From the NCBI GenBank assembly GCA_964578245.1, contig CAZOCL010000002.1, positions 1,730-65,729 on the forward strand: DNA of 64,000 nucleotides. The letters are read 5' to 3'. Shown here piece by piece: positions 8,598 to 40,761 of the stretch. The position numbers and the translations under genes were made by a program. Position 1 is the stretch's first letter. The number at the start of each line of letters is the position of its first letter. The notes under the pieces were generated by a model. The model did not search any database. It saw only the letters and a program-made list of their open reading frames with translations, and was not told the origin of the DNA. The DNA is from an uncultured Klebsiella sp. (GTDB lineage: Bacteria; Verrucomicrobiota; Verrucomicrobiia; Limisphaerales; SXTU01).

Positions 8598-9770
8598 ATG
8601 AGCAAAAACTCCGGGCCCAAAGTATCCAAGAAGTTCGCCAACTATCCGCGCCTGAATCCCCTCGGCGTGGGCAAGGACATCTCCGCCGCTGACCTGATCG
8701 ACCAGGTCATGCTCGCCTACAACGGCGGGCGGCTGCGCGAGGCGAGCCAGCTCCTCGCCAAGAAGATGCTGCCGGCGGATGGCTTCATCGGCATGAGCCT
8801 CACGGGCGCGCTCACGCCTGCCGGCCTCGGCAAGTCCTGCCTCATCCCACTGATGAAGGCCGGTTTCGTCGACTGGATCGTCTCCACGGGCGCAAACCTC
8901 TATCACGACCTGCACTTCGGCCTGGACATGAAGCTGCACAGCGGCTCGCCGTTCCTCGACGACGTCGAGCTGCACCAGGAGGGTGTCATCCGCATCTACG
9001 ACGTGCTCTTTGATTACAACGTGCTGCTGGATACCGATGCCTTTGTGCGCGAAGTCATCCAAGGGCCCGAGTTCCAGCGGCCGATGGGCACGGATGAATT
9101 CCATTACCTCCTGGGCAAATACGTCGCCGCGCGCGGCAAGAAGCTGGGGCTGAAGGACTCTTCCGTCCTGGCCACCGCCTACGAGTGCGGCATCCCGATC
9201 TTCACTAGCAGCCCGGGCGATTCCAGCATTGGCATGAACGTGGCCGCGATGGCCTTGCGCGATTCGAAGCTGCTCCCGGACGTGAACCGCGATGTGAACC
9301 AGACCGCCGCCATCGTCTATCACGCGAAGTCCACCGGGCACACGAGCAGCGTGTGGATTCTCGGCGGCGGCAGCCCAAAGAACTTCATGCTCCAGACCGA
9401 GCCGCAAATCCAGGAGGTCATGGGCATCCAGGAAAAGGGCCACGATTACTTCCTCCAAGTCACCGACGCGCGGCCTGACACCGGCGGCCTGAGCGGCGCG
9501 ACGCCCGCCGAGGCCGTGAGCTGGGGCAAGGTGGACCCGGACAAGCTCCCCGACTCCGTAGTCTGTTACACGGACTCGACCATCGCCCTGCCGCTGCTGA
9601 GCGCCTACGTGCTCACCCGCGTGAAGCCGCGCAAACTCAAGCGCCTGTATGGCCATCGCGATGCGATCCTCGACAAGGTCCGCTCGCTCTACCTGGCCCG
9701 AGGCACGGTGACGAAGGTGCTGACCAGCCGGAAGATTGCCAAGCGCGCCAGCAGCGTGGGGCTGAAGTAA
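8598..9770 (+). CDS. Deoxyhypusine synthase family protein (bacterial DHS/homospermidine-synthase-like)
   Basis: ATG at 8598 (MSKNSGPK...). [14 protein letters not shown]...[14 protein letters not shown]...[10 protein letters not shown] are motifs typical of the DHS fold. Confidence 0.82.
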
Positions 9771-9896
9771 CCCCGTGCCGGCGGCTCGCCGCCGCCGTGT
9801 TGTAGCTTGGAACTTTTTCAGGCTGCTGTGGCCAACGGTCGGCGGCTGCAAGCCGCCGGCACGGGGCCTGGGGCTGCGCAAGCTCGGGCGGTTTGC

Positions 9897-10011
9897 CCCG
9901 GTTCGGAGTCCCGCCTTTAGGCGGCGTGTCGTGAGTGGCACCAAAACACGCGCGGATAGCCCACTGGCAATCGGGCGCCTCGCAGCCTAAAGGCGGGACT
10001 CCGAACCGGGG
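9897..10011. repeat. Perfect 27-bp inverted repeat (REP-like element, 'ggcgggactccgaac' family)
   Basis: ccccggttcggagtcccgcctttaggc (9897-9923) is the exact reverse complement of gcctaaaggcgggactccgaaccgggg (9985-10011). A third copy lies inside mfd at 13812-13835. Confidence 0.9.
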
Positions 10012-10140
10012 ACGGCTCCAAGCCGCGCGCATGCAGGTTGGACAGGGCTATCGGTCGAGAGAGCTTCCAGCCACCGCGACGCTTTTAGGCCGGCGGTTTT
10101 TCCCCTTTCAAGATTCCGGTTGCCAACCGCCGAATCCTGA

Positions 10141-10185
10141 GTTACTGCTATTTCAGTAGTAACAGAAATTACTGATACTGAAATC
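10141..10185. promoter_or_regulatory. AT-rich nested palindrome directly upstream of the 10200 gene (candidate operator)
   Basis: atttcagta (10150-10158) pairs with tactgaaat (10176-10184). gttact (10141-10146) pairs with agtaac (10158-10163). It is a strongly AT-rich island in a GC-rich context, 15 nt before the ATG. Confidence 0.35.
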
Positions 10186-10199
10186 GAGAAAGGCCTCCT

Positions 10200-10631
10200 A
10201 TGAACCCCGCTGAACCAAACCCCGCTGCCATGAACCTCATCGTCTGGACCTACGTCGTTTACCTGCTGGCGAGCGTGGCGCTCACCGTGTGGGTGGCGAA
10301 GACCCTGCACAAGAACGGCCGCATCTTCCTGGTGGACAGCTTTGGCGGGAACGAGCCGCTGGCGGACTCGGTGAACCACCTGCTCGTCGTGGGCTTCTAC
10401 CTGATGAACATCGGCTACGTGACCCTCGCCTTGAAATACGGCGTGGAGATCGCCAACACCCGTGAGGCCATCGAGACCTTCAGCACCAAGATCGGCATGG
10501 TGCTCATGGTCCTGGGCGTAATGCACTTCTTCAACCTGCTCGTCTTCACGCGGATGCGCCGCCGGGCGCTGCTGCACAAGGTCCCGCCGCCGGTCCCGCC
10601 CACAGGCAACCTGCGCCCCGTCAACCTCTGA
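10200..10631 (+). CDS. Small integral membrane protein, unknown function
   Basis: Three or four hydrophobic segments (LIVWTYVVYLLASVALTVWV, LLVVGFYLMNIGYVTL, IGMVLMVLGVMHFFNLLVF) and a Pro-rich tail. Confidence 0.55.
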   Translation: MNPAEPNPAAMNLIVWTYVVYLLASVALTVWVAKTLHKNGRIFLVDSFGGNEPLADSVNHLLVVGFYLMNIGYVTLALKYGVEIANTREAIETFSTKIGMVLMVLGVMHFFNLLVFTRMRRRALLHKVPPPVPPTGNLRPVNL

Positions 10632-10674
10632 AACCTCACGCCCGGCGCGGGCCGACCGCGCCGGGCCTCCTGCC

Positions 10675-11142
10675 ATGAAAACTCTCTACATTCTCTACGA
10701 CGACGGCTGCGCTTTTTGCCGCCGCTGCCGAGACTGGCTGGCCCAGCAGGAGTGCTTGGTGCAACTGCACCCGCTGGCACATCAGGCACCGGAGGTTTTG
10801 TGCCGCTTCCCGGAAGTTCAGTCCTACCTTCACCCCCGCGAACTGACCGTGATCAGTGACACCGGCGAGGTCTGGCATGGGCCGGCGGCGATGGTGGTCT
10901 GCCTGCACGCCATTGAGGAACACCGTAAGATCGCGGCCCGCCTGGCGGAACCAGGGCTGCTGCCGTATGCGCAGAAGGCCTTCGAGTTCCTGATGGACCA
11001 CCCTGAACAGCTCACCCCCTGGCTGCTCTACACCCCGCAGGCCACGGTGGAACAGGCCCTCCGCCACTACACCCTAACCGAGGGCCAGATGAAGCCTGGC
11101 CAAAGCGCGCGGGCAAGGCCGCCGGCCTTCCCCGTGGCGTGA
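10675..11142 (+). CDS. DCC-family thiol-disulfide oxidoreductase (DUF393-like)
   Basis: N-terminal LYILYDDGCAFCRRC, the CxxC motif characteristic of the DCC family. Confidence 0.68.
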   Translation: MKTLYILYDDGCAFCRRCRDWLAQQECLVQLHPLAHQAPEVLCRFPEVQSYLHPRELTVISDTGEVWHGPAAMVVCLHAIEEHRKIAARLAEPGLLPYAQKAFEFLMDHPEQLTPWLLYTPQATVEQALRHYTLTEGQMKPGQSARARPPAFPVA

Positions 11143-28527: not shown

Positions 28528-29118
28528 TCACCGCCCGAACTGCTTCAGAAACGCCGCCGCGTCGAAACCGTCCGGCTTGAAGACCAGTTCCGGGTTCAAC
28601 GGCGGTTCATAGCCCGCGTCCACCCCGGTCATCTCCCGCAGGGCACCGGTGGCCGCCCGACGGTAAAGCCCCTTGGGATCGCGTTGCTGGCAGACCACCA
28701 GCGGCGTGTCGGCGAACACCTCGATGAACTGGCCGGGGGCAAAGGTCCGGCGGAGGGCGTCCCGCTGCGCGCGGAAGGGCGAGATGCAGGCCACCACCAC
28801 GGTGAAGGACTGCGCCACCAGCACGCGCGCCATCTCGCCGATGCGCCGGACGTTCTCATGCCGGGCAGCCTCCGAGTATCCCAGGTCCGCGTTGACGGTC
28901 CGACGCAGGTCGTCCCCATCCAGCACCACGACCGGGAGGTTCTGTGACTGCAGCGCGGCCTGAATGCGCTGGGCGAGTGTGGTCTTGCCAGCGGCGGGCA
29001 GGCCGGTGATCCAGATCACGGCGGGCAACTCAAGGGTGGCGGTGGGTGCGCTCAACGGCAGAAAGCAGGCGGCAATTGCACGGGAAAGGCAAGCCGAAGC
29101 CAGCCTCTCCGGGGACAA
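28528..29118 (-). CDS. cysC: Adenylylsulfate (APS) kinase
   Basis: VIWITGLPAAGKTTLA P-loop, LDGDDLR, ACISPFR and PKGLYRRA are canonical APS-kinase blocks. The start is TTG. Confidence 0.88.
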   Translation of the reverse strand: MSPERLASACLSRAIAACFLPLSAPTATLELPAVIWITGLPAAGKTTLAQRIQAALQSQNLPVVVLDGDDLRRTVNADLGYSEAARHENVRRIGEMARVLVAQSFTVVVACISPFRAQRDALRRTFAPGQFIEVFADTPLVVCQQRDPKGLYRRAATGALREMTGVDAGYEPPLNPELVFKPDGFDAAAFLKQFGR

Positions 29119-29161: not shown

Positions 29162-29920
29162 GTGTTCGCCCAGCTCAAAGCCAGCCTCAAGAACTGGCAG
29201 CACTCTCGCTCGGCCCCGGCCCGCGTGGTTTATCAAGTTTCCCGGCTGGGCTGGTTGGGCTGCCGTCTGCTCGTGGATGCCCGCCTGCGGGCGGAGACCC
29301 TCGGCCACTGGCGGCACCGCGCCGCCTATCTTCAGCCAGCCACGGAAACCTACCTCAATCGTTATCCCGGGCTGTTCAGGCAATGCCGACTGCGGTTCGC
29401 CGAACATCCTAATCCCCGGATCCTCTCGTTTGGCTGCTCGACCGGAGAGGAGGTCCGCTCCCTGGCCAAACACCTGCCGCAGGCGGTCATTGTAGGGGTG
29501 GACATCAATGACTGGTGCCTGTCCGAGTGCTGGCGCAAGGACCCGCACCACCGGCACACCTTCCTTCATCGGCTATCTGCGGAGTTTGAACGAGAGCCGG
29601 CTTTCGATGCCATCTTCTGCATGGCCGTCCTGCAGCATACGCTGAACCGCGCCAGCGCCGACAATGCCGTGGCCCAAGGCATCACCTTCGAGGAATTCGC
29701 GCGCGAAGTGGCCGTGCTGGATGCCAAGCTGAAAACCGGCGGCCTGCTCTTTCTGGATCATGTGGACTTCCGTTTTGGGGACACGCCCTGCGCCAGCCGC
29801 TACACCCCGCTGGACTTTCCAAGAAATCGCGCCCCGCGCCCGCGGCCCATCTACGGGCCGGATCACCGCAAGCTGGCTGACGTGCAGGACACGCCAAGGG
29901 TGTTCGTCAAGCAGCGCTGA
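29162..29920 (+). CDS. Class I SAM-dependent methyltransferase (lasso-cluster associated)
   Basis: ILSFGCSTGEEVRSLA (motif I) and VGVDIND. GTG start, divergent from cysC with a 43-nt gap. Confidence 0.6.
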   Translation: MFAQLKASLKNWQHSRSAPARVVYQVSRLGWLGCRLLVDARLRAETLGHWRHRAAYLQPATETYLNRYPGLFRQCRLRFAEHPNPRILSFGCSTGEEVRSLAKHLPQAVIVGVDINDWCLSECWRKDPHHRHTFLHRLSAEFEREPAFDAIFCMAVLQHTLNRASADNAVAQGITFEEFAREVAVLDAKLKTGGLLFLDHVDFRFGDTPCASRYTPLDFPRNRAPRPRPIYGPDHRKLADVQDTPRVFVKQR

Positions 29921-30034: not shown

Positions 30035-30967
30035 GTGGCTCCGACACTGGACCCTCTTCCGCCGCACCGACACCGCGTCTATGGCCTGACCATCGCGGCA
30101 TGGATTCCCTTTCCCCAGTTGCCAACGGCACCGGCAGACGCCCCTGTGGACGCTGTCTTCCGCCTCGGCGAGGTGCCGGCGGAGCTGCCGGATTTCAAGA
30201 GCCGGGGTGCCCGCTTCCGGGTTGCGCCGGGCAGATTGCTGGTCTGGATTAACGGCGTGGCGCGCTATCTGGTGGTGGACGGCCGGGAGATCATCGTCCA
30301 GCCGGCCCCGGACGCGGAGGAGAACGACCTGCGCGAGCTGCTCCTCTGCTCGCCGATGGGTGCCCTGCTGCATCAACGCGGCGTGCTGCCGCTGCATGCC
30401 AGCGTCATCGCCACCCCGCGCGGGGCGGTCGCGTTCATGGCCCACTCCGGGCATGGCAAGTCCACCCTCGCCGCGCACTTCCGCCAGCGCGGCTTCAAGA
30501 TTCTCGCCGATGACATCGCAGCGGTGTCCTTTGATGCGGGGGGGAGGCCGATGGTCGCGCCGGGCTACCCCCAGTTCAAACTCTGGCCGGACTCCGTCAA
30601 CGAACTGGGCCACAGCACGACGGATCTGCGTCAGTTCCGGACGAATGTGGAGAAGTTCTTCCTCACGTTCCCAGACGCCTTCCACTCCGAGCCGCTGCCG
30701 CTCACGCAACTGTATGTGGTGGAGGGACGGAATGACGCTGACGGGGTGACATTGGAGCCCTTGAGCGTGCCGGACAAGCTGCGCTACCTCCTCACCCACA
30801 CTTACCGCGCCCAGTATGTGCCTGGGCTCGGCCGGGAGAAGGCCCACTTCCAGACCGTGGGGCGGCTGGCGGCCACAGTTTCCGCCAAGCGCGTGCGGCG
30901 GCCCACCGATGGCACCTTCCGCCTCGAACAACTGGCCGACGCCTTGACGGCCGATTTTGCGCGATGA
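30035..30967 (+). CDS. HPr-kinase-like serine kinase (lasso peptide kinase type)
   Basis: LHASVIATPRGAVAFMAHSGHGKSTLAA P-loop, as in the HprK C-terminal domain. GTG start, followed by cluster genes. Confidence 0.75.
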   Translation: MAPTLDPLPPHRHRVYGLTIAAWIPFPQLPTAPADAPVDAVFRLGEVPAELPDFKSRGARFRVAPGRLLVWINGVARYLVVDGREIIVQPAPDAEENDLRELLLCSPMGALLHQRGVLPLHASVIATPRGAVAFMAHSGHGKSTLAAHFRQRGFKILADDIAAVSFDAGGRPMVAPGYPQFKLWPDSVNELGHSTTDLRQFRTNVEKFFLTFPDAFHSEPLPLTQLYVVEGRNDADGVTLEPLSVPDKLRYLLTHTYRAQYVPGLGREKAHFQTVGRLAATVSAKRVRRPTDGTFRLEQLADALTADFAR

Positions 30968-31809
30968 AAGGCATCGTCTGGCTGGCGAGTTATCCGAAGT
31001 CCGGTAACACTTGGTTCCGGATTTTCCTCGCCAACCTGCTGGCCGACCAGCCGACGCCGGTGGACATTAACGCCATTGAAACCGAGAACTTCGCCGCTCG
31101 AACCACTTATGACCGGGCGCTGGGCTGGGAGACCTCCGACCTGACGCTGGCGGAAGCGTCCCAAGCCCGCCTCGATGTGCAGGAAGCCCTCGCACTGGAG
31201 GACAATGTCTTCTTCAAGGTCCACGAGTCCTTCCGTGATCCAGTCAGCCACGCGCTGCTGTTCTCCCGGGTCGCGACCCGAGCTGTGTTCTACTTTCTCC
31301 GCAACCCGCTGGATGTGGCAGTCTCCTTCAGCCATCATCGGGGCAGGGACCTCGACAACACCATTGTCCGGATGAACAATCCAAACGCCACCATTGCGCC
31401 AGGCCAGGACGGACTGGGACCGCAATTACCCCAGCCCACGGGCGACTGGAGCTGGCATGTGCGGAGCTGGGCCGACGAACCGGGGCTGCCCGTGCTGGTC
31501 CTGCGCTACGAGGACATGCTGGCGCGCCCGCAGGAGGTGTTTCAAGCAGCCTGTGAGTTCGCTGGCCTGCCCAGCGAGCCAGCCCGGGTGGCCCGCGCAC
31601 TGAACCATGCCCGGTTTGAGAATGTCCGCGCGCAGGAGCAGGCAAAAGGCTTCCGTGAGGCGATGGACCGGCGCCCCTTTTTCCGGCATGGCAAGGCTGG
31701 CGGCTGGCGTGAAACCTTGTCGCCAGCGCAGGTTGCCGCTATCGTCTCCCAACATGGCGATGTCATGCGGCGCTTCGGATACCTGAACGCCGATGGTTCG
31801 CCGGTGTAA
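30964..31809 (+). CDS. PAPS-dependent sulfotransferase
   Basis: SYPKSGNTWFR (5'-phosphosulfate binding loop) and FLRNPLDVAVSFSHH (3'-phosphate binding). ATGA overlap with the kinase gene. Confidence 0.82.
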   Translation: MKGIVWLASYPKSGNTWFRIFLANLLADQPTPVDINAIETENFAARTTYDRALGWETSDLTLAEASQARLDVQEALALEDNVFFKVHESFRDPVSHALLFSRVATRAVFYFLRNPLDVAVSFSHHRGRDLDNTIVRMNNPNATIAPGQDGLGPQLPQPTGDWSWHVRSWADEPGLPVLVLRYEDMLARPQEVFQAACEFAGLPSEPARVARALNHARFENVRAQEQAKGFREAMDRRPFFRHGKAGGWRETLSPAQVAAIVSQHGDVMRRFGYLNADGSPV

Positions 31810-31913: not shown

Positions 31914-31929
31914 TTTCTGATTTTTGCCT

Positions 31930-32217
31930 ATGACCAAGACCGCCCTCACCCTCCAGTCTGTCGTCGCCCAGTCGCCTGATCTGGTCGGGACGAACATCGA
32001 GGACCACACCGCGCTCCTGAGCATCACCAACGGTGCGTATTACAGCCTGGACCCCGTGGCCAGCCGCGTCTGGCAGCTCATTGAGCAGCCGCGCCCGGTG
32101 ACGGCGGTCGTGGACCATTTGCTCACCGAATACACCGTGGAGCGGGCCACTTGCGAGGCGCACACGCTCGCCTTCCTCCAGCAGCTCGCCGACGCCGATC
32201 TGCTGGCCAAGCAGTAA
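31930..32217 (+). CDS. Lasso peptide biosynthesis B1 protein (PqqD-family RRE)
   Basis: LLSITNGAYYSLDPVASRVWQLIEQPRPVTAVVDHLLTEYTV...AFLQQLADADLL is a PqqD-like winged helix. Confidence 0.82.
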   Translation: MTKTALTLQSVVAQSPDLVGTNIEDHTALLSITNGAYYSLDPVASRVWQLIEQPRPVTAVVDHLLTEYTVERATCEAHTLAFLQQLADADLLAKQ

Positions 32218-32663
32218 TGTCCCGCCTCGCCAAGTTTCTCCGGCATGACTGGGCCGGACGCGGCCTGCTGCTGGAGGCGCTGGCCTGGCTGGTCTGGGCC
32301 AAGCTGCTCCTGCTGGTCGTCCCGTTTCGCTGGATTGCGCCGCGCCTGGGCAGGCCAATGACGGAGAGCGCCGCCAGCCTGACCGAGCCCGGAAGCCTGC
32401 TTGCCTCCCGAATTTCCTGGGCCGTGCAATCCGTGGCGGCAAACGTGCCGCTAGGGCTGGTCTGCCTGCCGCAAGCCATGGCGGCCAAATGGATGCTCCG
32501 CCGCAGGCACCTCGCCAGCACGCTTTACCTCGGCGTGGCCCGGCCGGATGAGGCGAAGTTCACCGCGCACGCCTGGCTCCGCGCCGGCAACAAGATCCTG
32601 ACCGGCCGCGCCGAGAGCCGCACCCACACCACGCTCGCCTCCTTTGCTGAGGAATGGCCGTGA
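32217..32663 (+). CDS. Lasso peptide biosynthesis B2 protein (transglutaminase-like leader protease)
   Basis: TAATG overlap with B1. CLPQAMAAKWML (catalytic Cys) and FTAHAWL (His), with the size and N-terminal hydrophobic helix typical of B2. Confidence 0.82.
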   Translation: MSRLAKFLRHDWAGRGLLLEALAWLVWAKLLLLVVPFRWIAPRLGRPMTESAASLTEPGSLLASRISWAVQSVAANVPLGLVCLPQAMAAKWMLRRRHLASTLYLGVARPDEAKFTAHAWLRAGNKILTGRAESRTHTTLASFAEEWP

Positions 32664-32688
32664 ATTCCATCCCGCCTGCCGCGTTCCG

Positions 32689-34605
32689 ATGAGCGCTCTC
32701 TGCGGCTTCCTCAACCTCGACGCCGCTCCGGCTGACTCCCAGCTCGTCGCGGCGCAGGTGGCCCGATTGCAGCATCGCGGGCCGGACGGTTCCGGCACGT
32801 TCACGGAGGGTCCCTGCGCGCTGGGCCATCTGCTCCTGCGCATCACGCCGGAGGCGGACGGGGAAACGTCTCCCTTTCACAGCCCGGACGACCAGCTCGT
32901 GATCGCCTTCGACGGCCGGCTGGATCACCGCGAGGACCTGCTGGCCGCGCTCGGCGTCCCGCCCTCGGAGCGTGGCCTGCCCGATCCCGCGCTCATCCTC
33001 CGCGCGTATGCGCAGTGGGGTGCCGATTGCGTGACCAGGCTCGACGGCGAGTTTGCCTTCGCCGTCTGGGACCGGCGGCGGCAGGAGTTGTTCTGCGCGA
33101 GTGACGCTTTTGGCAGCCGCCCGTTTTACTTTTACCAGGACGCGCGGCGGCTGGTGTTTGCCAGCGCCATCCGCGGCGTGCTGGCCGTGCCCGGGGTGCC
33201 GCGCGAACTCGACGAGCTGTCCCTCGCCTGCTCGCTCGGAGGCGCGCCCCAACCGCCGGGCCAGACGCTCTACGCCCGCATTTCCTTTCTGCCCGGTGGT
33301 CGCACGCTGACCGTGCCGCGCGGTGGCCGGCCGGTGATCCGGACCTGGTGGCAGTTGACGATGGAACCGGAAATCCAGCTCCGCTCCACCGAAGACTATA
33401 CCGAGGCCTTGCGTGAACTGCTGGAGCGGGCCACGCGCTCAGCCATGCGCACGCGGCATCCGGTGGGTGCCATGCTCAGCGGCGGGCTGGACTCCAGCGG
33501 CGTAGCCTGCCTCGCTGCGCGCGACCTCGCCTCGCGCGGCCAGCGGCTCGTCACGGTGTCCACGGTGTTGCCCGAGGATTTCCAAGGCGTGGAATGGGAG
33601 AAGGAGGAAAGCGCGTTCATCCGCAGCGCCCTGGAGCGCTACCCGAACATGGCCCCGCACTGGGCGCGGGGCCTGGCTTTTCCAGTCATCACCTTCAATG
33701 ACGCGGCCTACCAGTTGCACGACGAGCCTGACAACGATCCAAAATCTTTCCGGACAGCGGAGCTGTTCCGGCTTGCGGAGCAGGCGGGGACGCGCGTCCT
33801 GCTCGGCGGCATGGGGGGCGACATGGCCGCTTCGTTCAAGGGCACCGGTTACCTGCAGCAGCTCGCCCTGGGCGCGCGCTGGGGGGAACTGGTCCGTCAC
33901 CTCCAGTTGCTGGCGCGCGTCCGGGGCGAGACGGTGCCCGGCATCTTCCGGCGCGAAGTGCTCCGGCCGCTGGCCCCCGAATGGCTGCGCCGTTGGAACG
34001 ACACGTTCCGGCACGATGCCGCAGCAACTCGGGATGAGTTCAGCATCCAGCCCGAGTTCGCCGCGCGGATGCAGATGGCCGAACGCCGCCGGGCCGCCGG
34101 ACGGGACATCGAAAGGCCGGCGGATTTCCGACGCCTGCAGGTTTCGCTGGCGAACGCCGGCCTCCTCGGCGGCGGCTCAGGCTGGGCGAGCCGCCACACC
34201 CCGCACATGGAAAGCCCCCAGCCGCTCATGAACCGCCGGCTTTGGGAGTGGTGCCACCGGGTGCCGCTGGGAGAGTTCACGCGGGATGGCATGTCCCGCG
34301 GGCTCTACCGCCGTGCGCTGCACGATGTGCTGCCGGAGCGCATTCTGCGCCGCCACTCCAAAGGCTGGTTCGCGCCGGACTACGTGCAGCGCCTCGCTGC
34401 CTGCCGCCCGGCGATGGAACGCTTCCTCGCGGAGCATCCCGCGCAGGACGCGGTTTGGAATTACGTGAGCCGCCCTCAAGTGGAGGCGACCTTACAGCGT
34501 CTGGCCGCCGCTGGCACTCAGGCCAGATGGGACAATCGTTACCAAATCATCCTGTGTCAGGGCCTCCGGCTAGCACACTTTGTCACTTGGATGCGGGGGC
34601 GGTGA
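32689..34605 (+). CDS. Lasso peptide cyclase (asparagine-synthetase-like, C protein)
   Basis: MSALCGFL N-terminus, MLSGGLDSSGVA PP-loop, and about 640 aa in length. It follows B2. Confidence 0.85.
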   Translation: MSALCGFLNLDAAPADSQLVAAQVARLQHRGPDGSGTFTEGPCALGHLLLRITPEADGETSPFHSPDDQLVIAFDGRLDHREDLLAALGVPPSERGLPDPALILRAYAQWGADCVTRLDGEFAFAVWDRRRQELFCASDAFGSRPFYFYQDARRLVFASAIRGVLAVPGVPRELDELSLACSLGGAPQPPGQTLYARISFLPGGRTLTVPRGGRPVIRTWWQLTMEPEIQLRSTEDYTEALRELLERATRSAMRTRHPVGAMLSGGLDSSGVACLAARDLASRGQRLVTVSTVLPEDFQGVEWEKEESAFIRSALERYPNMAPHWARGLAFPVITFNDAAYQLHDEPDNDPKSFRTAELFRLAEQAGTRVLLGGMGGDMAASFKGTGYLQQLALGARWGELVRHLQLLARVRGETVPGIFRREVLRPLAPEWLRRWNDTFRHDAAATRDEFSIQPEFAARMQMAERRRAAGRDIERPADFRRLQVSLANAGLLGGGSGWASRHTPHMESPQPLMNRRLWEWCHRVPLGEFTRDGMSRGLYRRALHDVLPERILRRHSKGWFAPDYVQRLAACRPAMERFLAEHPAQDAVWNYVSRPQVEATLQRLAAAGTQARWDNRYQIILCQGLRLAHFVTWMRGR

Positions 34606-35050: not shown

Positions 35051-35221
35051 ATGAGCCTTATGAACACGACCACCGCCTCCGCCTCAGTCGAAAACACCGA
35101 GTCCAAGCAGGTTTGGACCGCCCCCACTTTGACGACGCTTTCGCTCCCGCTGGGAACGCTTTCCAATGCTGCCACCGGTGCGGATGGCATGTCGTCGAAA
35201 GCGGCGGGAAGCCTAAGCTAA
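35051..35221 (+). CDS. Lasso peptide precursor A1 (56 aa)
   Basis: MSLMNTTTASASVENTESKQVWTAPTLTTLSLPLGTL|SNAATGADGMSSKAAGSLS. It has a WxxPxL leader motif, Thr at -2 and Asp at core position 8. Its paralog is at 36727. Confidence 0.8.
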   Translation: MSLMNTTTASASVENTESKQVWTAPTLTTLSLPLGTLSNAATGADGMSSKAAGSLS

Positions 35222-35343: not shown

Positions 35344-36495
35344 ATGTATAGCTTGCGCGGTTATGGAGAAATGATCGCGGATGAAGGCCGGGCCACCGCC
35401 TTCGAGCAATCGATCCGTGCCGCCGTCAAGCCACAGTCTGTGGTGCTCGAGCTGGGCACGGCCACCGGGCTGATGGCCCTCTGGGCTGCGCAGGCCGGTG
35501 CGCGCCATGTCCATGCCGTCGAGCCAGATAAATCCATCGTCCTCGCCCGACAAAGTGCGAGAGACAATGGGTTTGCCAGCCGCATTACCTGTCATCAGAA
35601 GCTGTCCACCCAGCTCACGCTGTCGGAGCGGGCGGACGTGTTCATAGAGGATTTGCGCGGGTCCATGCCGTGCTGCAGGACTCGGTTGCTGGACATCATG
35701 GACGCGCGGGCGCGGCTGCTCACGCCGGATGCGACTTTGATCTGCCAGCGGGATACGTGCTTCGTCACGGTGGCCGAGGCCGAGAAGCCGTCGCGTCACA
35801 TGCACGCAGTGTGGGACGGAAGCCGCTGGGGGCTGGACTTGAGGGCGGTGCAACGGCTGGCACCCAATTGCATGACCCATCATCGCTGCGCCCCCGAGGA
35901 ACTGCTAGCGGAACCGCGCGCCTGGGCGGAGATTCACTACCCGACCGTCAGTTCGCCCCATGTGCGGGGCGCGGCGGAGCTCACTGTCCTTCGTCCTGCC
36001 ACCGCGCACGGGCTGGCGCTCTGGTTCGACGCGGAACTGTTCGGCGGCATCCGTTTCTCGAATGCCCCAAGCGAGCCGAAGCACGTTTACAACAATGCCT
36101 TCCTGCCATGGCCAGCACCCACGCCCCTGCAGGCGGGCGACCGGGTGGTGGTGAAGCTGGACGCGGTCTTTACTGGCGGAGAATATGAGTGGAACTGGGC
36201 GAGCACCGTCTGGCGCGAAGGCGCGGCGGAACCCGTCGCGCGGTTCAGCCAGTCCACGTTACAAGGCCGGCCGGTTTCCGCGCCGGCACTGGCCCTTCGC
36301 ACCGGCAGCTTCCGCCCGCACCGCAATGACGCCGCCGAAGTGGAGCGCTTCCTGCTCGAACGCATGGATGGCCAGGCCACCAACGACCAACTGGCCGCCG
36401 CGCTCCGCACCCAGTTTCCCAATGCCTTCCCCACCGACACCGCCGCGCTCGCCCGCGTGGTGGACACCGTGGAGAAGTTCAGCGCTACGAGTTGA
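35344..36495 (+). CDS. PRMT-like class I methyltransferase with a PqqD/RRE-like C-terminal domain
   Basis: VLELGTATGLMALWAAQAGARHVHAVE (PRMT-type motif I) and a beta-barrel-like middle region. The C-terminal FLLERMDGQATNDQLAAALRTQFP...ALARVVDTVEKF resembles PqqD. Confidence 0.65.
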   Translation: MYSLRGYGEMIADEGRATAFEQSIRAAVKPQSVVLELGTATGLMALWAAQAGARHVHAVEPDKSIVLARQSARDNGFASRITCHQKLSTQLTLSERADVFIEDLRGSMPCCRTRLLDIMDARARLLTPDATLICQRDTCFVTVAEAEKPSRHMHAVWDGSRWGLDLRAVQRLAPNCMTHHRCAPEELLAEPRAWAEIHYPTVSSPHVRGAAELTVLRPATAHGLALWFDAELFGGIRFSNAPSEPKHVYNNAFLPWPAPTPLQAGDRVVVKLDAVFTGGEYEWNWASTVWREGAAEPVARFSQSTLQGRPVSAPALALRTGSFRPHRNDAAEVERFLLERMDGQATNDQLAAALRTQFPNAFPTDTAALARVVDTVEKFSATS

Positions 36496-36626: not shown

Positions 36627-36726
36627 GCGAATGCGTTCGTCACTGCCAGTTGAAGAATGAAAGACTTGCAGGTTCGCGGGCAATACGACTATCCTCCACA
36701 AGGTTTTACCGCAGGGATTTGTGAAC

Positions 36727-36876
36727 ATGAACACCGCCACCGTCGAAAACACTGATGGGTCCAAGCAGGTTTGGACCGCCCCCACTTTGACAACGCTTTC
36801 GCTCCCGCTGGGAACGCTGGCCACCGGTAACAATGGTTCGGATGGTGGCGTCATGGCCAGCACCACCAGGAGTTAG
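36727..36876 (+). CDS. Lasso peptide precursor A2 (49 aa)
   Basis: MNTATVENTDGSKQVWTAPTLTTLSLPLGTL|ATGNNGSDGGVMASTTRS. About 60 nt of the leader are near-identical to A1. It is below the ORF-track cutoff. Confidence 0.8.
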   Translation: MNTATVENTDGSKQVWTAPTLTTLSLPLGTLATGNNGSDGGVMASTTRS

Positions 36877-37041: not shown

Positions 37042-37815
37042 TCAAAACAAGCCCGTGTCGTAGTGTTTCAGCCACCGGAACAGTCCACGGTGCTCCTCCG
37101 GAATGGCAGCCAGACGCTCTGGTGAAATCTTCATAAATGGCTGCTGGCGGTAGTTCTGGTAGTCCTTGAACCACGGGCGGTGATACACGCAGTAGAGCAT
37201 GGGCCGAGGCTGGTCGGAAAGGTTCGCGGTGCCGTGATGGAACAGCCGGTAGTCCACCAGCAGGCCGCAGCCCAGCGGCACGGTGGGATCCAGCCCGGGA
37301 GTTGCCTTGCCCTCCTCGTCCGGTTTCAAGTGCGAGCCGGGCATCAGGCGGGTGGTGCCGTTGGTTGCGTTGAACTCGCGGAGCGGGATGAAGAGATTGA
37401 CCGCGTGGGGCGGGAGAAAACGGTTTAGCACGGGACCGAACAGCAGCGGGTTGTCCCGATGAAGGTGCTGGTCCTTGGCTCCCGGCAAGGATGTGACTGA
37501 GGCAAAGCTGCCCAGCACCAAGTCCGACCCGAGCAACTGCTGGAGCACCGGCAGGACGAGCGGGTTGGCGTAAAGCGCCGCATCAAGAAAGGGCATCTCC
37601 ATCTCCAAAGTAACCATGAACCGGCGGCTGCCCACCTTGAGCGCATCCCCTGGCCGGTCTTCGTCGAAATACCGGGCGTAACGCTCGCAATACACTTCAC
37701 CGAGCTGGCTGACGAGTTCACGGGGCAGCAGGTCACGAACGAGCAGGCATCCATGACGGCGAAATTGCTCGGCGCAGCTTTCCGGAGTCGAGGCGGCGGT
37801 GAGTTCGGGAACCAT
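37042..37815 (-). CDS. PhyH-family Fe(II)/2-oxoglutarate dioxygenase
   Basis: DQHLHRD (HxD) and LFHHGTAN (distal His). The length and pattern are those of phytanoyl-CoA-dioxygenase-like hydroxylases. Confidence 0.75.
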   Translation of the reverse strand: MVPELTAASTPESCAEQFRRHGCLLVRDLLPRELVSQLGEVYCERYARYFDEDRPGDALKVGSRRFMVTLEMEMPFLDAALYANPLVLPVLQQLLGSDLVLGSFASVTSLPGAKDQHLHRDNPLLFGPVLNRFLPPHAVNLFIPLREFNATNGTTRLMPGSHLKPDEEGKATPGLDPTVPLGCGLLVDYRLFHHGTANLSDQPRPMLYCVYHRPWFKDYQNYRQQPFMKISPERLAAIPEEHRGLFRWLKHYDTGLF

Positions 37816-37907: not shown

Positions 37908-38747
37908 TCACCACCCCAGCCACGTGCGCAGCCCGCCGCTGGTGAACAGCACCGCTGGATAGCAGGCGAGGAAGGCCCATAGAAACGGCGCGAGGCCCAT
38001 GAAGTGGCCGATGCCGAGGTGCAAGAGGAAGACCCCGGCCACAAACACCGCCGCCACCGGCCCGCCCGTCAGCCAGGCCAGCGGGAAGCCGATCTCCAAC
38101 ACGAGCGCGCCCCAGGTCGCCGTCCGATTCACTGCGGGGTGCGCGGCCAGCCACGCCGCCAGCCGGCGGTCTCCCATCAGGTCCTGCCGCAGCAGGCAGC
38201 CGATGGCTTCTCCCGAGCGCCAGGCCCCGGTCGTGAGGGCCTTGAGCACACCGCTCGTGAAGTAGGCCAGCGCGCACTGACCGGCGATGAACCACAGGAC
38301 CGCCTGCGCCACGGATGCGCTCGCCGGCGCGAGTTCCCGCAGCACGAGCGCGCCCAGCACGGCAAGCCGCATCCGGTCCGCCCCGAGCACGCCCAGACCG
38401 AATTGCCGCACATTGATCAGCACGGCGGCCACCACGCCCAGCCACAAGGCGAGGGGACGCACCACGGGGTCGGCCGGCACCAGCACCAGCACCAGCCCGG
38501 CGAGCAGTCGGGCCACCTGGAGGGCAGCAAACCCGGTGGCGCGGAACAGGCAACCCAGCGCCACCGGACCTTCGCCCCGCAGGCGCGAGCGCTGGCGCAG
38601 CAGTGGCCAGCCCAGCACCGCGTCATCCGCCCAGGCGTTGCGGGCGGCCAGCCATTCGGCCGCCGAAACCGCGAGACTGACGCCAGCAAGCCGTGTGACC
38701 AGTGTCACGCACGCGAAGGGATCCTGCAGCCAGACGGCGTCAATCAC
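37908..38747 (-). CDS. Polytopic membrane protein, unknown function
   Basis: About 8 hydrophobic segments. The GTG start overlaps the upstream stop (GTGA). No family was recognised with confidence. Confidence 0.6.
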   Translation of the reverse strand: MIDAVWLQDPFACVTLVTRLAGVSLAVSAAEWLAARNAWADDAVLGWPLLRQRSRLRGEGPVALGCLFRATGFAALQVARLLAGLVLVLVPADPVVRPLALWLGVVAAVLINVRQFGLGVLGADRMRLAVLGALVLRELAPASASVAQAVLWFIAGQCALAYFTSGVLKALTTGAWRSGEAIGCLLRQDLMGDRRLAAWLAAHPAVNRTATWGALVLEIGFPLAWLTGGPVAAVFVAGVFLLHLGIGHFMGLAPFLWAFLACYPAVLFTSGGLRTWLGW

Positions 38748-39280
38748 ACGGCCTCCCCTCCCGTTGCCAGCGGCAGAAACTCGGAGGTGTAGAGGCGCTG
38801 CTCGGGGGCGTCCGCCGTGATCAGCAGTTGCTCGCGCAGTTCAAACTGCCGCGCGGTCGTTCCCGGCGGGCCGGCCACGCCCGCCACGCAGTGCCATAAA
38901 GCCCGCCAGGCTGGAGTGCTGGCCAGGCGTTCCGCCGGCAGCGCGGCGCGCACGCGGTCGGCCAGCAGCTCCGCGAGCGAATACTGCGCGTCGGCTGCGA
39001 ACAGCTCCGGATTGAAGAACGCGCGCCAGGGCCGCTGGCTGCGCTCGGCAGGCAACCACCGCCATTCGCCGACGCTCCCAGCGGCATCCCGGTCGCGATA
39101 ATAGAGCCGCACATTCGTCGGGAGCCCGGTGTAAAGCCGCCAGCTCGGCACGAGCCGTAAGAAGTCGAATCGCGCCATGACTGCGGTCAGGCGGGTGAAG
39201 CACAGTTGGTAGGCCACGGAGACGGCGAACCATGCTGCCAGCAGCAGGAGGGCGAGCCATTCCATGACGGCGAGATTCAT
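38744..39280 (-). CDS. Membrane-anchored hypothetical protein
   Basis: ATG at 39280 (MNLAVMEWLALLLLAAWFAVSVAY...) in an ATGA overlap with the upstream gene. The longer 39460 start overlaps that gene and is unlikely. Confidence 0.5.
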   Translation of the reverse strand: MNLAVMEWLALLLLAAWFAVSVAYQLCFTRLTAVMARFDFLRLVPSWRLYTGLPTNVRLYYRDRDAAGSVGEWRWLPAERSQRPWRAFFNPELFAADAQYSLAELLADRVRAALPAERLASTPAWRALWHCVAGVAGPPGTTARQFELREQLLITADAPEQRLYTSEFLPLATGGEAV

Positions 39281-40464
39281 GATTGGGCAGCGAGCCGCCG
39301 CTTCACCCACAGCAGCGGCCAGAGCACGTAGTAGAGGGCGAACCACCGGTCCGGGAGGGGCAGCGTCTGCCAGTCCGCCGGGTTCACCACGCGCGGACGC
39401 AACATGCGGAGGCGCACGCGCCAGCTTGGCTGCAGCCGCCAGGCGTAGCCAACCATCCACCAGTGCGCCGAGCCGGTCTTGATTTCATCCGGCGTCAGCT
39501 CCATGTGGCGGCAGGCGTCGTCCACGAGCTGGGTGAGCACGGGAGTTTCCGGCGGAGCCGGCAGCCCGGCCGGCAGCGGCACGGCGAGGAGTTCACGCGC
39601 GAGCAGGACGCTCTGCCAGAAGACGCGCTCCAGTTTCGTCGCCTCCGCCCGGGCGAGCAGGCGCGGCCAGTCGAGTGTGCCAGCCTGCATCAGCAGCGCG
39701 ATGTCCAGGAGCCAGAAGAGCCGGAACCAGCCGTGGTCCGCGCCGTGCAGGAGCAGGTGCAGCGCGGCCGTCTCCGCCGGCAGCACGGCGATGCGCTGGC
39801 CCGCAATGGTCGCCGTGCCCGGAGCTTCCCCCAGCGTGCTGCGGTGGAAGTGCTCGTGGTTCACCAGCCGCCACATGATCTCCAATCGCAGCGCGCCGTC
39901 CGCGCTGAAATACTCAAACTCATGACGCACGCTGAAGTATTTCTGCTGCTGGAGCGGCGTGAGCGGAAAGTCCGGCTGGGTGCGACGGAACCCGGCGTCT
40001 TGCAGCAGCCGGTCCGCGCGTTCGGCGTCCGCCTGGCGGATCAGCAGGTCCAGGTCGCCCGAGTGGCGCAGGCCCAGATCGCCATACAAGTCGCGAGCCA
40101 GCAGCGGCCCTTTCACGCTCGTGACGGGGATGCCGGCTTGTTCGAGCAGCTTCACGAGGCGCGTCAGTTCGCCGGTGCGCTGCATGGCGCGGAGGGCGGT
40201 GTCCCGGGCACTGCTGGCGAGCCGCTGGCGCACTGCCTCCGGCAGCGCGGCCAAAGCCTCGCGGGGCAGCCGTTGTTGCAGGAACGCACCCACGCGATGC
40301 CGCTCGACGAGGGCCAGGAACGTGCCGGCGTCCGTGCCCTCCGGCCAGGGCAACTCCGGCGGCGCAGTGCGCAGCGCGACCCGCAAGGCGTGGAGGAGGA
40401 GGCGTATTTCCGCCGGCCAGTGGCGGGCGCGGCCGGGGAGTTCCAGGGGTGGCACGGGGTTCAT
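39277..40464 (-). CDS. NTP_transf_5-type uncharacterised nucleotidyltransferase
   Basis: ATG at 40464 (MNPVPPLELPG...). VKGPLLARDLYGDLGLRHSGDLDLLI (G..hS.DlDlL motif) and HGADHGW are typical of this family. Confidence 0.65.
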   Translation of the reverse strand: MNPVPPLELPGRARHWPAEIRLLLHALRVALRTAPPELPWPEGTDAGTFLALVERHRVGAFLQQRLPREALAALPEAVRQRLASSARDTALRAMQRTGELTRLVKLLEQAGIPVTSVKGPLLARDLYGDLGLRHSGDLDLLIRQADAERADRLLQDAGFRRTQPDFPLTPLQQQKYFSVRHEFEYFSADGALRLEIMWRLVNHEHFHRSTLGEAPGTATIAGQRIAVLPAETAALHLLLHGADHGWFRLFWLLDIALLMQAGTLDWPRLLARAEATKLERVFWQSVLLARELLAVPLPAGLPAPPETPVLTQLVDDACRHMELTPDEIKTGSAHWWMVGYAWRLQPSWRVRLRMLRPRVVNPADWQTLPLPDRWFALYYVLWPLLWVKRRLAAQS

Positions 40465-40761
40465 GGCGCACACCGTGGGGGGCAGGACGCGCTCACTCCG
40501 AGCGCCGAAGCGGGCGGACACCGCCGGCCCGGAGCGCGGCCTGCAGGCCGCAGAAACGTGCGCCGGCCCGGGGTGGTTCGAACGCACTTCTCGCGTCGGA
40601 GCTTTCTGCGGCCTGAAGGCCGCGCTGCACGGGCGCGAAGTTCCGCCGGCTCGTGGAGGCCCATACCAGCGTGGGTCGAAATTCTTGTGTTCGCGAGTGT
40701 CATCCTGACCAGATGCGGAAAAGCAGGCGCAGACCGGAGTAAAATGGCAAAGCAAAACCAC

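Follow-up and report, generated by a model that had tools for sequence, protein, structure and literature searches.

The 64,000-nucleotide stretch of DNA analysed here (the window; contig CAZOCL010000002.1 of assembly GCA_964578245.1, deposited as an uncultured Klebsiella sp. and placed by GTDB among the Limisphaerales of the Verrucomicrobiota) contains a lasso peptide biosynthetic cluster with a gene for a 383-residue S-adenosylmethionine (SAM)-dependent methyltransferase (35344..36495, + strand, ATG start). The enzyme has the fold of protein arginine methyltransferases (PRMTs), and the residues with which PRMTs hold arginine are replaced. On balance, it is probably a peptide methyltransferase with the PRMT architecture and a rebuilt acceptor pocket, which belongs to a tailoring family of lasso clusters and carries a degenerate C-terminal tail derived from PqqD, a protein with the fold of the recognition elements (RREs) of peptides that are made on the ribosome and modified after translation (RiPPs).

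The PRMT-like fold, which a first-pass annotation had proposed from the sequence, was confirmed by sequence search, structure prediction and structural comparison. A phmmer search of the PDB matched residues 4-268 to PRMT2, PRMT6, PRMT7, PRMT1 and CARM1 at E-values from 1e-17 to 1e-10, with PRMT2 and PRMT6 at E ~1e-16. The AlphaFold model of the methyltransferase, calculated with 59 homologues, has a mean predicted local distance difference test score (pLDDT) of 95.5, and Foldseek aligned ~320 residues of it (309-331 columns) to PRMT6, PRMT2 and PRMT1 at E ~1e-25, with template-modelling scores (TM-scores), normalised to the target, of 0.72-0.86. Residues 1-135 (35344..35748, + strand) form the Rossmann SAM-binding domain, as delimited by alignment to PRMT2 and by conservation within the family. 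The domain holds an N-terminal YGEMxxDxxR helix (M10, D13 and R16, the last being the counterpart of the PRMT arginine that contacts the carboxylate of SAM), the motif I LELGTATG (residues 35-42, part of the string VLELGTATGLMALWAAQAGARHVHAVE that the first-pass annotation had quoted and that covers residues 34-60) and the post-I acidic residue E60. When conservation was counted over 120 distinct family members, R16 was kept in 120, M10 in 118 and E60 in 114 of them; G38 and G42 are conserved, as is the DAR motif. The beta-barrel with its arm-like insertion, residues 136-319 (35749..36300, + strand), was assigned from the secondary structure of the model and agrees with the barrel-like region suspected earlier. 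The Pfam domain PF22528 PRMT_C matches residues 138-270, below its cutoff. The barrel carries a family-specific F-x-Q-S-T strand (301-305), and its residues W285 and Q303 are conserved in 120 and 119 of the 120 members, respectively. Both structural hallmarks of PRMTs, the Rossmann domain with its SAM site and the barrel with its arm, are therefore present in the window protein.

In PRMTs, two invariant glutamates of the double-E loop clamp the guanidinium group of the substrate, and the THW loop is also needed for arginine. Neither the double-E loop nor the THW loop is preserved in the family. The remodelled double-E loop, residues 103-114 (35650..35685, + strand), reads D103-L-R105-G106...P109...R114 in place of the E-W-M-G...E of PRMTs. 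The first glutamate is an aspartate (D103) in 120/120 members, accompanied by R105 in 114/120 and P109 in 120/120. Position 112, which corresponds to the second PRMT glutamate, is variable among the 120 members (Gln in 38, Glu in 26, Gly in 24, Arg in 11, Ser in 6), and at position 114, the equivalent of Met155 of PRMT1, 90/120 members have His and the window protein has Arg. Residues 247-249, which align with the THW loop, read [LTM]-[IV]-Y; they include no conserved His or Trp, and Y249 is found in 120/120. Judged by the sequence features that define PRMTs, the family is a fold relative of these enzymes and not one of their members, and the working arginine site implied by the first-pass annotation was not found. 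The pocket, with Asp, Arg105 and His or Arg114, is predicted to be less acidic than that of PRMTs, which would be compatible with a neutral or anionic acceptor.

The family is large and is linked to lasso clusters in many phyla. A profile search of 1.84 billion representative sequences recovered 2256 clusters at 50% identity (E<=1e-30), and among the best 150 of these nearly all members are ~380 residues long, with the tail covered. We selected 80 genome loci by the methyltransferase alone, and these stem from Verrucomicrobiota, Acidobacteriota, Longimicrobium, Myxococcales, Chloroflexota, cyanobacteria and other groups. An HprK-like kinase is encoded in 66 of the loci, a lasso cyclase in 59, and the leader-binding protein B1 and an NTP_transf_5 protein in 46 each. 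Co-location with lasso genes recurs in Verrucomicrobiota, Acidobacteriota, Gemmatimonadota, Chloroflexota, Myxococcota and others, the commonest gene order being B1-B2-C-precursor(s)-kinase-methyltransferase-N. The start of the methyltransferase gene overlaps or abuts the stop of the kinase gene in 36/63 pairs on the same strand. The closest relative discussed here, an 86%-identical orthologue in locus L006, lies in the same type of cluster as the window gene. We conclude that the methyltransferase is an accessory (tailoring) gene of lasso clusters that is spread over many phyla. A housekeeping enzyme, for example a PrmA-like methyltransferase of a ribosomal protein that lies in the cluster by chance, would explain the weak Pfam and NCBIfam matches to PrmA and the existence of a 76%-identical copy that does not lie in a lasso cluster. 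However, the PrmA matches span the generic Rossmann part only, and the recurrent lasso co-location in many phyla, together with the overlap with the kinase gene, largely refutes this explanation, which we regard as highly improbable.

Two further arrangements of the gene were observed. In locus L057, an in-frame open reading frame (ORF) of 796 residues (8735-11125) joins an HprK-like kinase (residues 102-299) to a PRMT-fold methyltransferase (423-780); this fusion was seen once and may stem from a sequencing error. Some Pyrinomonadaceae clusters, those of L022, L038 and L044, encode two PRMT-fold paralogues; in L022 (10001-12426) the two lie in tandem.

The methyltransferase gene of the window is located between two paralogous precursor genes, as the first-pass annotation had stated. 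Precursor A1 (35051..35221, + strand) is encoded upstream, with the leader ...SKQVWTAPTLTTLSLPLGTL and the core SNAATGADGMSSKAAGSLS (35162-35218), and precursor A2 (36721..36876, + strand, probable ATG start at 36727) is encoded downstream, with the core ATGNNGSDGGVMASTTRS (36820-36873). The two precursors share the leader KQVWTAPTLTTLSLPLGTL, and both have a Thr at position -2, an Asp at core position 8 for the macrolactam and a Ser at the C-terminus. The A1 core contains a single Lys and the A2 core a single Arg, each near the C-terminus, also as previously described. The wider precursor family was recovered by all-against-all clustering of small ORFs, which provided 66 precursors from 53 methyltransferase loci; a regular expression for the WTAPTL leader returned close relatives only, and the 600-900 nucleotides upstream of B1 were uninformative for precursors. 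Members of the family have the leader KKPYxxPxLxxYGxIxEIT-x and cores 18-24 residues long, in which an Asp occupies one of positions 8-10 and 0-4 residues separate a K[TS] or R[TS] motif from the C-terminus.

To tell apart what goes with the kinase and what with the methyltransferase, 80 metagenome loci were fetched by the kinase. The set without methyltransferase comprises 14 kinase loci that have at least 1.5 kb of downstream sequence and the methyltransferase nowhere in the locus. Clusters with a tailed methyltransferase contain 71 distinct cores, of which 50 have K[TS] near the end and seven R[TS] only; 27 contain any Arg and three neither Lys nor Arg (residue composition: Arg 2.4%, Lys 9.1%, Met 6.7%). 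Among the 20 distinct cores of clusters with a tail-less methyltransferase, 19 have K[TS] near the end and none R[TS] only, none contains Arg, and one has neither Lys nor Arg (Arg 0.0%, Lys 8.6%, Met 0.5%). The 13 distinct cores from clusters without methyltransferase include five with K[TS] near the end, five with R[TS] only, 11 with any Arg and none that lacks both basic residues (Arg 13.9%, Lys 9.0%, Met 0.4%). Arg is thus missing from 44/71 cores beside tailed enzymes and from 20/20 beside tail-less ones, a contrast with the clusters without methyltransferase that could be phylogenetic and not functional. Among the cores of L014-L167, those beside tailed enzymes are strikingly rich in Met, for example AVGNTGMMDGGADMMMDQTQP, and poor in Arg; those from clusters without methyltransferase are rich in Arg and His and nearly free of Met.

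The core statistics bear on the acceptor that the first-pass annotation had proposed, an Arg or Lys near the C-terminus. The basic-[TS] motif is also present in kinase clusters without methyltransferase, and therefore it goes with the kinase and is not linked to the methyltransferase. A Lys or Arg near the C-terminus was also considered as a conserved acceptor and was rejected as a general rule, because the motif persists without the methyltransferase and the cores of the closest orthologues lack both residues. Cores with neither Lys nor Arg occur beside the 86%-identical orthologue in L006 (SNAASGADANDTMNTNNSLS) and beside a tail-less relative in L003 (AVTHAGADGGMTTMGDLGSSVT). Since Arg is missing from most cores and depleted beside the enzyme, and since the cores of the closest relatives contain neither Lys nor Arg, arginine is an unlikely target as far as the sequences can tell. 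Lysine is a possible acceptor in most clusters, because the basic residues there are almost all Lys, yet it is not universal. The groups common to every associated core are only the C-terminus and Ser/Thr (or its phosphate).

The enzyme could still N-methylate arginine (or lysine) in proteins, with an RRE of its own to bind the WTAPTL leader, and act on the Arg of A2 and the Lys of A1 in the linear precursor. The PRMT fold, the single basic residue near the end of each window core, the presence of K[TS] or R[TS] near the end of 57/71 cores and of Lys in 64/71, and the PqqD proteins found as best matches of the tail are all consistent with this explanation. It is contradicted by the loss of the double-E clamp and the THW loop, by the core without Lys or Arg beside the closest orthologue (86%), by the occurrence of the basic-[TS] motif without methyltransferase and the depletion of Arg beside the enzyme, and by the missing RRE beta-sheet of the tail. 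We consider it unlikely.

Alternatively, the enzyme could be an O-methyltransferase acting on an anionic group that all cores have, either the C-terminal carboxylate, as in lassomycin, or a phosphate ester installed by the kinase on the C-terminal Ser/Thr. The C-terminus and Ser/Thr are the sole features shared by the associated cores, and C-terminal O-methylation is a known modification of lasso peptides (PMC9266682). The coupling of the methyltransferase gene to the kinase gene, or its fusion with it, points in the same direction, as does the replacement of the two glutamates by Asp, Arg105 and His/Arg114, which would make the pocket less acidic. Family members in kinase-free clusters (L001, L012, L047) argue against it. 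Furthermore, we know of no PRMT-fold enzyme that O-methylates its substrate, and O-methylation of this kind seems to us improbable.

The C-terminal tail, residues 320-383 (36301..36492, + strand), is composed of a linker with a conserved FRP motif followed by three helices (329-340, 347-357 and 365-379), which have pLDDT >90 in the models of both the full-length protein and the isolated tail. The first-pass annotation had read most of this region (AEVERFLLERMDGQATNDQLAAALRTQFP...ARVVDTVEKF, residues 326-379) as a PqqD-like domain for recognition of the leader and had called for structure prediction and fold searches on the two parts of the protein. Structure predictions for the full-length protein and the isolated tail, together with fold searches, identified a PRMT fold but did not show the tail to be a complete RRE. 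In RREs, strand beta3 of a three-stranded antiparallel sheet pairs with the leader. The tail has the three-helix bundle of an RRE but not the sheet, as neither model, full-length or isolated-tail, has predicted strands after residue 305.

The similarity of the tail to PqqD was the top match by three methods, each of them giving a weak score. A profile of 38 tails searched against the PDB with hmmsearch found PqqD 3g2b first (E 0.07) and PqqCD 5sxy third. The Pfam family PqqD (PF05402) was the most frequent match, found for 21/38 tails at E<=10 with a best E of 2e-4; the tail of the window protein reached 13.9 bits, below the gathering cutoff of 23.4. The top Foldseek match of the tail was again 3g2b (E 0.8, probability 0.92, TM 0.46). 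With hhalign, the tail aligned in the right register to the alignment of the clusters' own B1 proteins (P 0.009, probability 4%) and, in the alpha1-alpha2 register, to a PqqD from locus L047 (P 1e-4, probability 58%). The same L047 protein was the strongest match outside the methyltransferases (E 0.002) when a hidden Markov model (HMM) of the tail helices was run over all ORFs of 167 loci. The gene of this PqqD overlaps that of a tail-less family member at the latter's 3' end, and it is plausible that the arrangement pictures the state before the fusion. A relationship of the tail to the PKMT C-terminal winged helix (PF21782), which gave weak matches in 9/38 tails, was rejected as cross-talk, since true PqqD matches that domain equally weakly.

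Locus L047 (5452-8375), from a member of the Anaerolineae, continues after the overlapping methyltransferase and stand-alone PqqD genes with a gene for a radical-SAM/SPASM enzyme, which is followed by a candidate precursor, MTTDSDSRAMQVKRTERKPWQPPTIVLERPLEV...GGKGTCK. The combination of PqqD and radical-SAM/SPASM enzyme indicates that the methyltransferase family also serves a RiPP class other than lasso peptides.

The same cluster type also contains orthologues without a tail, for example P0020 of L003 (70% identity) and those of a Pyrinomonadaceae clade, and neither tblastn nor the tail HMM detected a remnant of a split or pseudogenised tail downstream of the tail-less genes. The tail is probably the alpha1-alpha3 half of the PqqD fold and not a complete RRE. 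It would be at best a degenerate version of the enzyme's own leader-recognition domain expected by the first-pass annotation, as the sheet is absent, the cluster has a complete B1, and orthologues without the tail exist. The tail could also be unrelated to RREs and constitute a family-specific helical extension for oligomerisation or for docking to the kinase or B1, in which case its likeness to PqqD would be a convergent helix-turn-helix. The sub-threshold level of all similarity scores, the lack of a beta-sheet, the complete B1 in the cluster, and the repeated loss of the tail without a change of cluster type (P0020 in L003, the Pyrinomonadaceae clade) are in line with such an origin. Nevertheless, three independent libraries each ranked PqqD first, with the alpha1-alpha2 register unchanged throughout, and a true PqqD, encoded right after a tail-less member, is what the tail HMM matches most strongly once the methyltransferases are set aside. 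We therefore rate an origin unrelated to RREs as not very likely.

Based on the predicted structure, the gene neighbourhoods and the core sequences, a mechanism can be proposed for the favoured peptide methyltransferase. The PRMT architecture appears to be kept whole, including the N-terminal helix, Rossmann domain, beta-barrel and arm. The acceptor pocket appears to have been rebuilt, with Asp-x-Arg-Gly in place of Glu-Trp-Met-Gly, a second glutamate that is not conserved, usually His at the place of Met155, and Tyr for the Trp of the THW loop. The HprK-like kinase, to whose gene the methyltransferase gene is most often translationally coupled as judged from the gene overlaps, would phosphorylate Ser/Thr at or near the C-terminus of the core, as characterised kinases of other lasso clusters do. 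In step with the kinase, the methyltransferase would methylate A1 and A2, either as precursor or as core peptide. The first candidate for the acceptor would be the epsilon-amine of Lys where this residue is present, the basic residues beside the enzyme being almost all Lys. The second candidate would be an oxygen nucleophile common to all cores, namely the C-terminal carboxylate, the Ser/Thr hydroxyl or its phosphate. The tail probably originated from a neighbouring PqqD gene after loss of the beta-sheet, can apparently be lost, and may help to dock the enzyme on the complex of leader and B1. Help from B1 proteins has been demonstrated for lasso tailoring enzymes, among them the kinase BsfK (PMC10368454; PMC9266682).

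Somewhat more tentatively, we suggest that a PRMT-fold family of more than 2000 clusters was recruited to RiPP biosynthesis, where it may install a methylation of lasso peptides that has been unseen so far, aided by a sheet-less remnant of PqqD. Such a methylation would not be the O-methylation of a C-terminal or Asp carboxyl group. Candidates would be N-methylation of Lys beside phospho-Thr/Ser, methylation of the phosphate ester, and modification of the Met-rich cores.

Several observations weigh against the proposed role as a lasso tailoring enzyme with a PqqD-derived tail. Three loci, L001 and L012 from Opitutaceae and L047, contain the methyltransferase without the kinase. No lasso gene is present within 10 kb of the 76%-identical copy in L008 (10001-11146), a metagenome-assembled genome of the Limisphaerales. 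The associated cores do not have any one side chain in common, and the differing Lys and Arg content of clusters that have the methyltransferase and those that lack it may reflect phylogeny, as noted above. Each single test of the similarity between the tail and PqqD falls under the usual significance thresholds. A second methyltransferase gene of the window (29162-29920, + strand) is a competing source of any peptide methylation. Finally, the family is not described in the literature searched.

The neighbours of the L008 copy encode MurJ, a HAD hydrolase and a DUF1501 protein. The kinase-free lasso clusters of the Opitutaceae loci L001 and L012 encode two PqqD proteins and two JmjC enzymes in addition to the methyltransferase, and contain the candidate cores AKFCMFGGEAAPDNGPRVTNCS (L001, 16414-16602, - strand) and GKYTMFNIESAPDNGPLPS (L012, 16169-16387, - strand); a second PRMT-like protein is encoded at the 3' edge of L001.

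The remaining genes make the window cluster, by its sequence, a complete kinase-type lasso cluster, with B1, B2, cyclase, precursors with Thr at -2 and with Asp8 inside the range of core positions 7-9 expected for an Asp/Glu, and an HprK-like kinase. This gene set is also found around the orthologues. The HprK-related peptide kinase (30035-30967, + strand) matches TIGR04352 HprK_rel_A at E 2.5e-8, far below the cutoff, and its gene is followed by that of a sulfotransferase (30964-31809, + strand; PF00685, E 2e-25). B1 (31924-32217, + strand) is a complete stand-alone PqqD/RRE protein (PF05402, 65 bits, E 7.5e-18), which matches NF033536 lasso_PqqD_Bac at E 2.5e-20 and 72.4 bits, under the 80-bit cutoff. 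The leader peptidase B2 (32151-32663, + strand; NF033537, E 5e-25; PF13471) and the lasso cyclase C (32644-34605, + strand; NF033535, E 9.5e-118, 394.5 bits with a cutoff of 525 bits; Asn_synthase) precede the precursor A1. Upstream of the kinase, an adenosine 5'-phosphosulfate (APS) kinase (28528-29118, - strand) could supply 3'-phosphoadenosine-5'-phosphosulfate (PAPS) to the sulfotransferase. Beside it, directly upstream of the HprK-related kinase, lies the second methyltransferase gene mentioned above (29162-29920), which encodes an ordinary class-I enzyme (Methyltransf_12/23/25); the same pair is present in L006.

Directly after A2, the opposite strand encodes a PhyH-type Fe/2-oxoglutarate dioxygenase (37042-37815, - strand; PF05721, E 1.9e-16). 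Locus L006, otherwise syntenic, has neither the dioxygenase nor A2, and the dioxygenase may hydroxylate only one of the two cores. It is followed by genes for an SdpB/HTTM-like membrane protein (37908-38747, - strand), a 238-residue protein of no assigned family (38744-39460, - strand) and an NTP_transf_5 nucleotidyltransferase-like protein (39277-40761, - strand; PF14907, E 6.6e-57; coordinates of the longest ORF, the true start probably lying later). A pair consisting of an SdpB/HTTM-like membrane protein and a protein of ~180-240 residues is kept beside the methyltransferase in verrucomicrobial lasso clusters (L001, 12516-15262, two copies; L003, 8037-9403; L006, 11159-12534).

Lasso peptides attract interest as stable scaffolds, and every additional tailoring enzyme widens what can be built from them. 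The size of the family, its spread over many phyla and its tight coupling to a peptide kinase gene suggest that it probably defines a whole subclass of lasso peptides that are both phosphorylated and methylated, with uncultured Acidobacteriota and Verrucomicrobiota as the main sources, and the family is likely to install a new lasso modification. The enzyme also bears on the evolution of PRMT specificity, as it indicates that the PRMT fold can lose the arginine clamp and yet stay conserved. The half-RRE tail represents a natural experiment on which part of an RRE is still required in the presence of a full B1.

The window enzyme can be compared with four known systems. It resembles the eukaryotic type I PRMTs (PRMT1, PRMT2, PRMT6, CARM1) in the two-domain fold over ~320 residues, the N-terminal M-x-x-D-x-x-R helix, motif I, the post-I Glu and the D-A-R motif. 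Unlike them, it has an Asp for the first Glu, an unconserved second Glu, x-[IV]-Y for THW, one additional strand (F-x-Q-S-T) and a helical tail at the C-terminus; it is a bacterial protein encoded in a RiPP cluster, and Arg is missing from most of the substrates that it is likely to have. With PqqD and RREs, such as PqqD of X. campestris (3g2b) and lasso B1 proteins, the tail shares three helices and the alpha1-alpha2 pattern x-x-[IL]-x-x-[LM]-D-G-x-x-T-x-x-E/Q-[IL]-A-x-x-L-x-x-x-F. In contrast to these proteins, the tail has no three-stranded sheet, so that the canonical leader-pairing edge (beta3) is absent; it scores under the family thresholds and forms the C-terminal end of a methyltransferase. 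Fusions of RREs to tailoring enzymes have been described before; what is new in this case is that a RiPP cluster encodes an enzyme of the PRMT fold, that the pocket of this enzyme is remodelled and that it carries a half-RRE.

Two methylations of lasso peptides are described in the literature searched, up to a review of June 2026, and both are carboxyl O-methylations by enzymes of other folds. LasF and StspM O-methylate the carboxyl at the C-terminus; TceM and LihM are PIMT-type enzymes that O-methylate Asp, leading to aspartimide (PMC9266682, PMC8498205, PMC13352647). The same literature contained nothing relevant on PRMT-like or N-methylating lasso enzymes. The window enzyme is, like LasF/StspM and TceM/LihM, a SAM-dependent tailoring enzyme encoded in a lasso cluster, but these belong to other folds and families, and neither Methyltransf_2 (O-methyltransferase family 2) nor PCMT is among its Pfam matches at E<=0.1. 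The clusters of paeninodin, pseudomycoidin and BsfA/BsfK resemble the window cluster in the HprK-like kinase, the split B1/B2, the cyclase, the NTP_transf_5 protein and the Ser/Thr at or near the end of the core. A PRMT-like methyltransferase has not been reported from those clusters, whereas in the family described here it is a conserved partner of the kinase gene.

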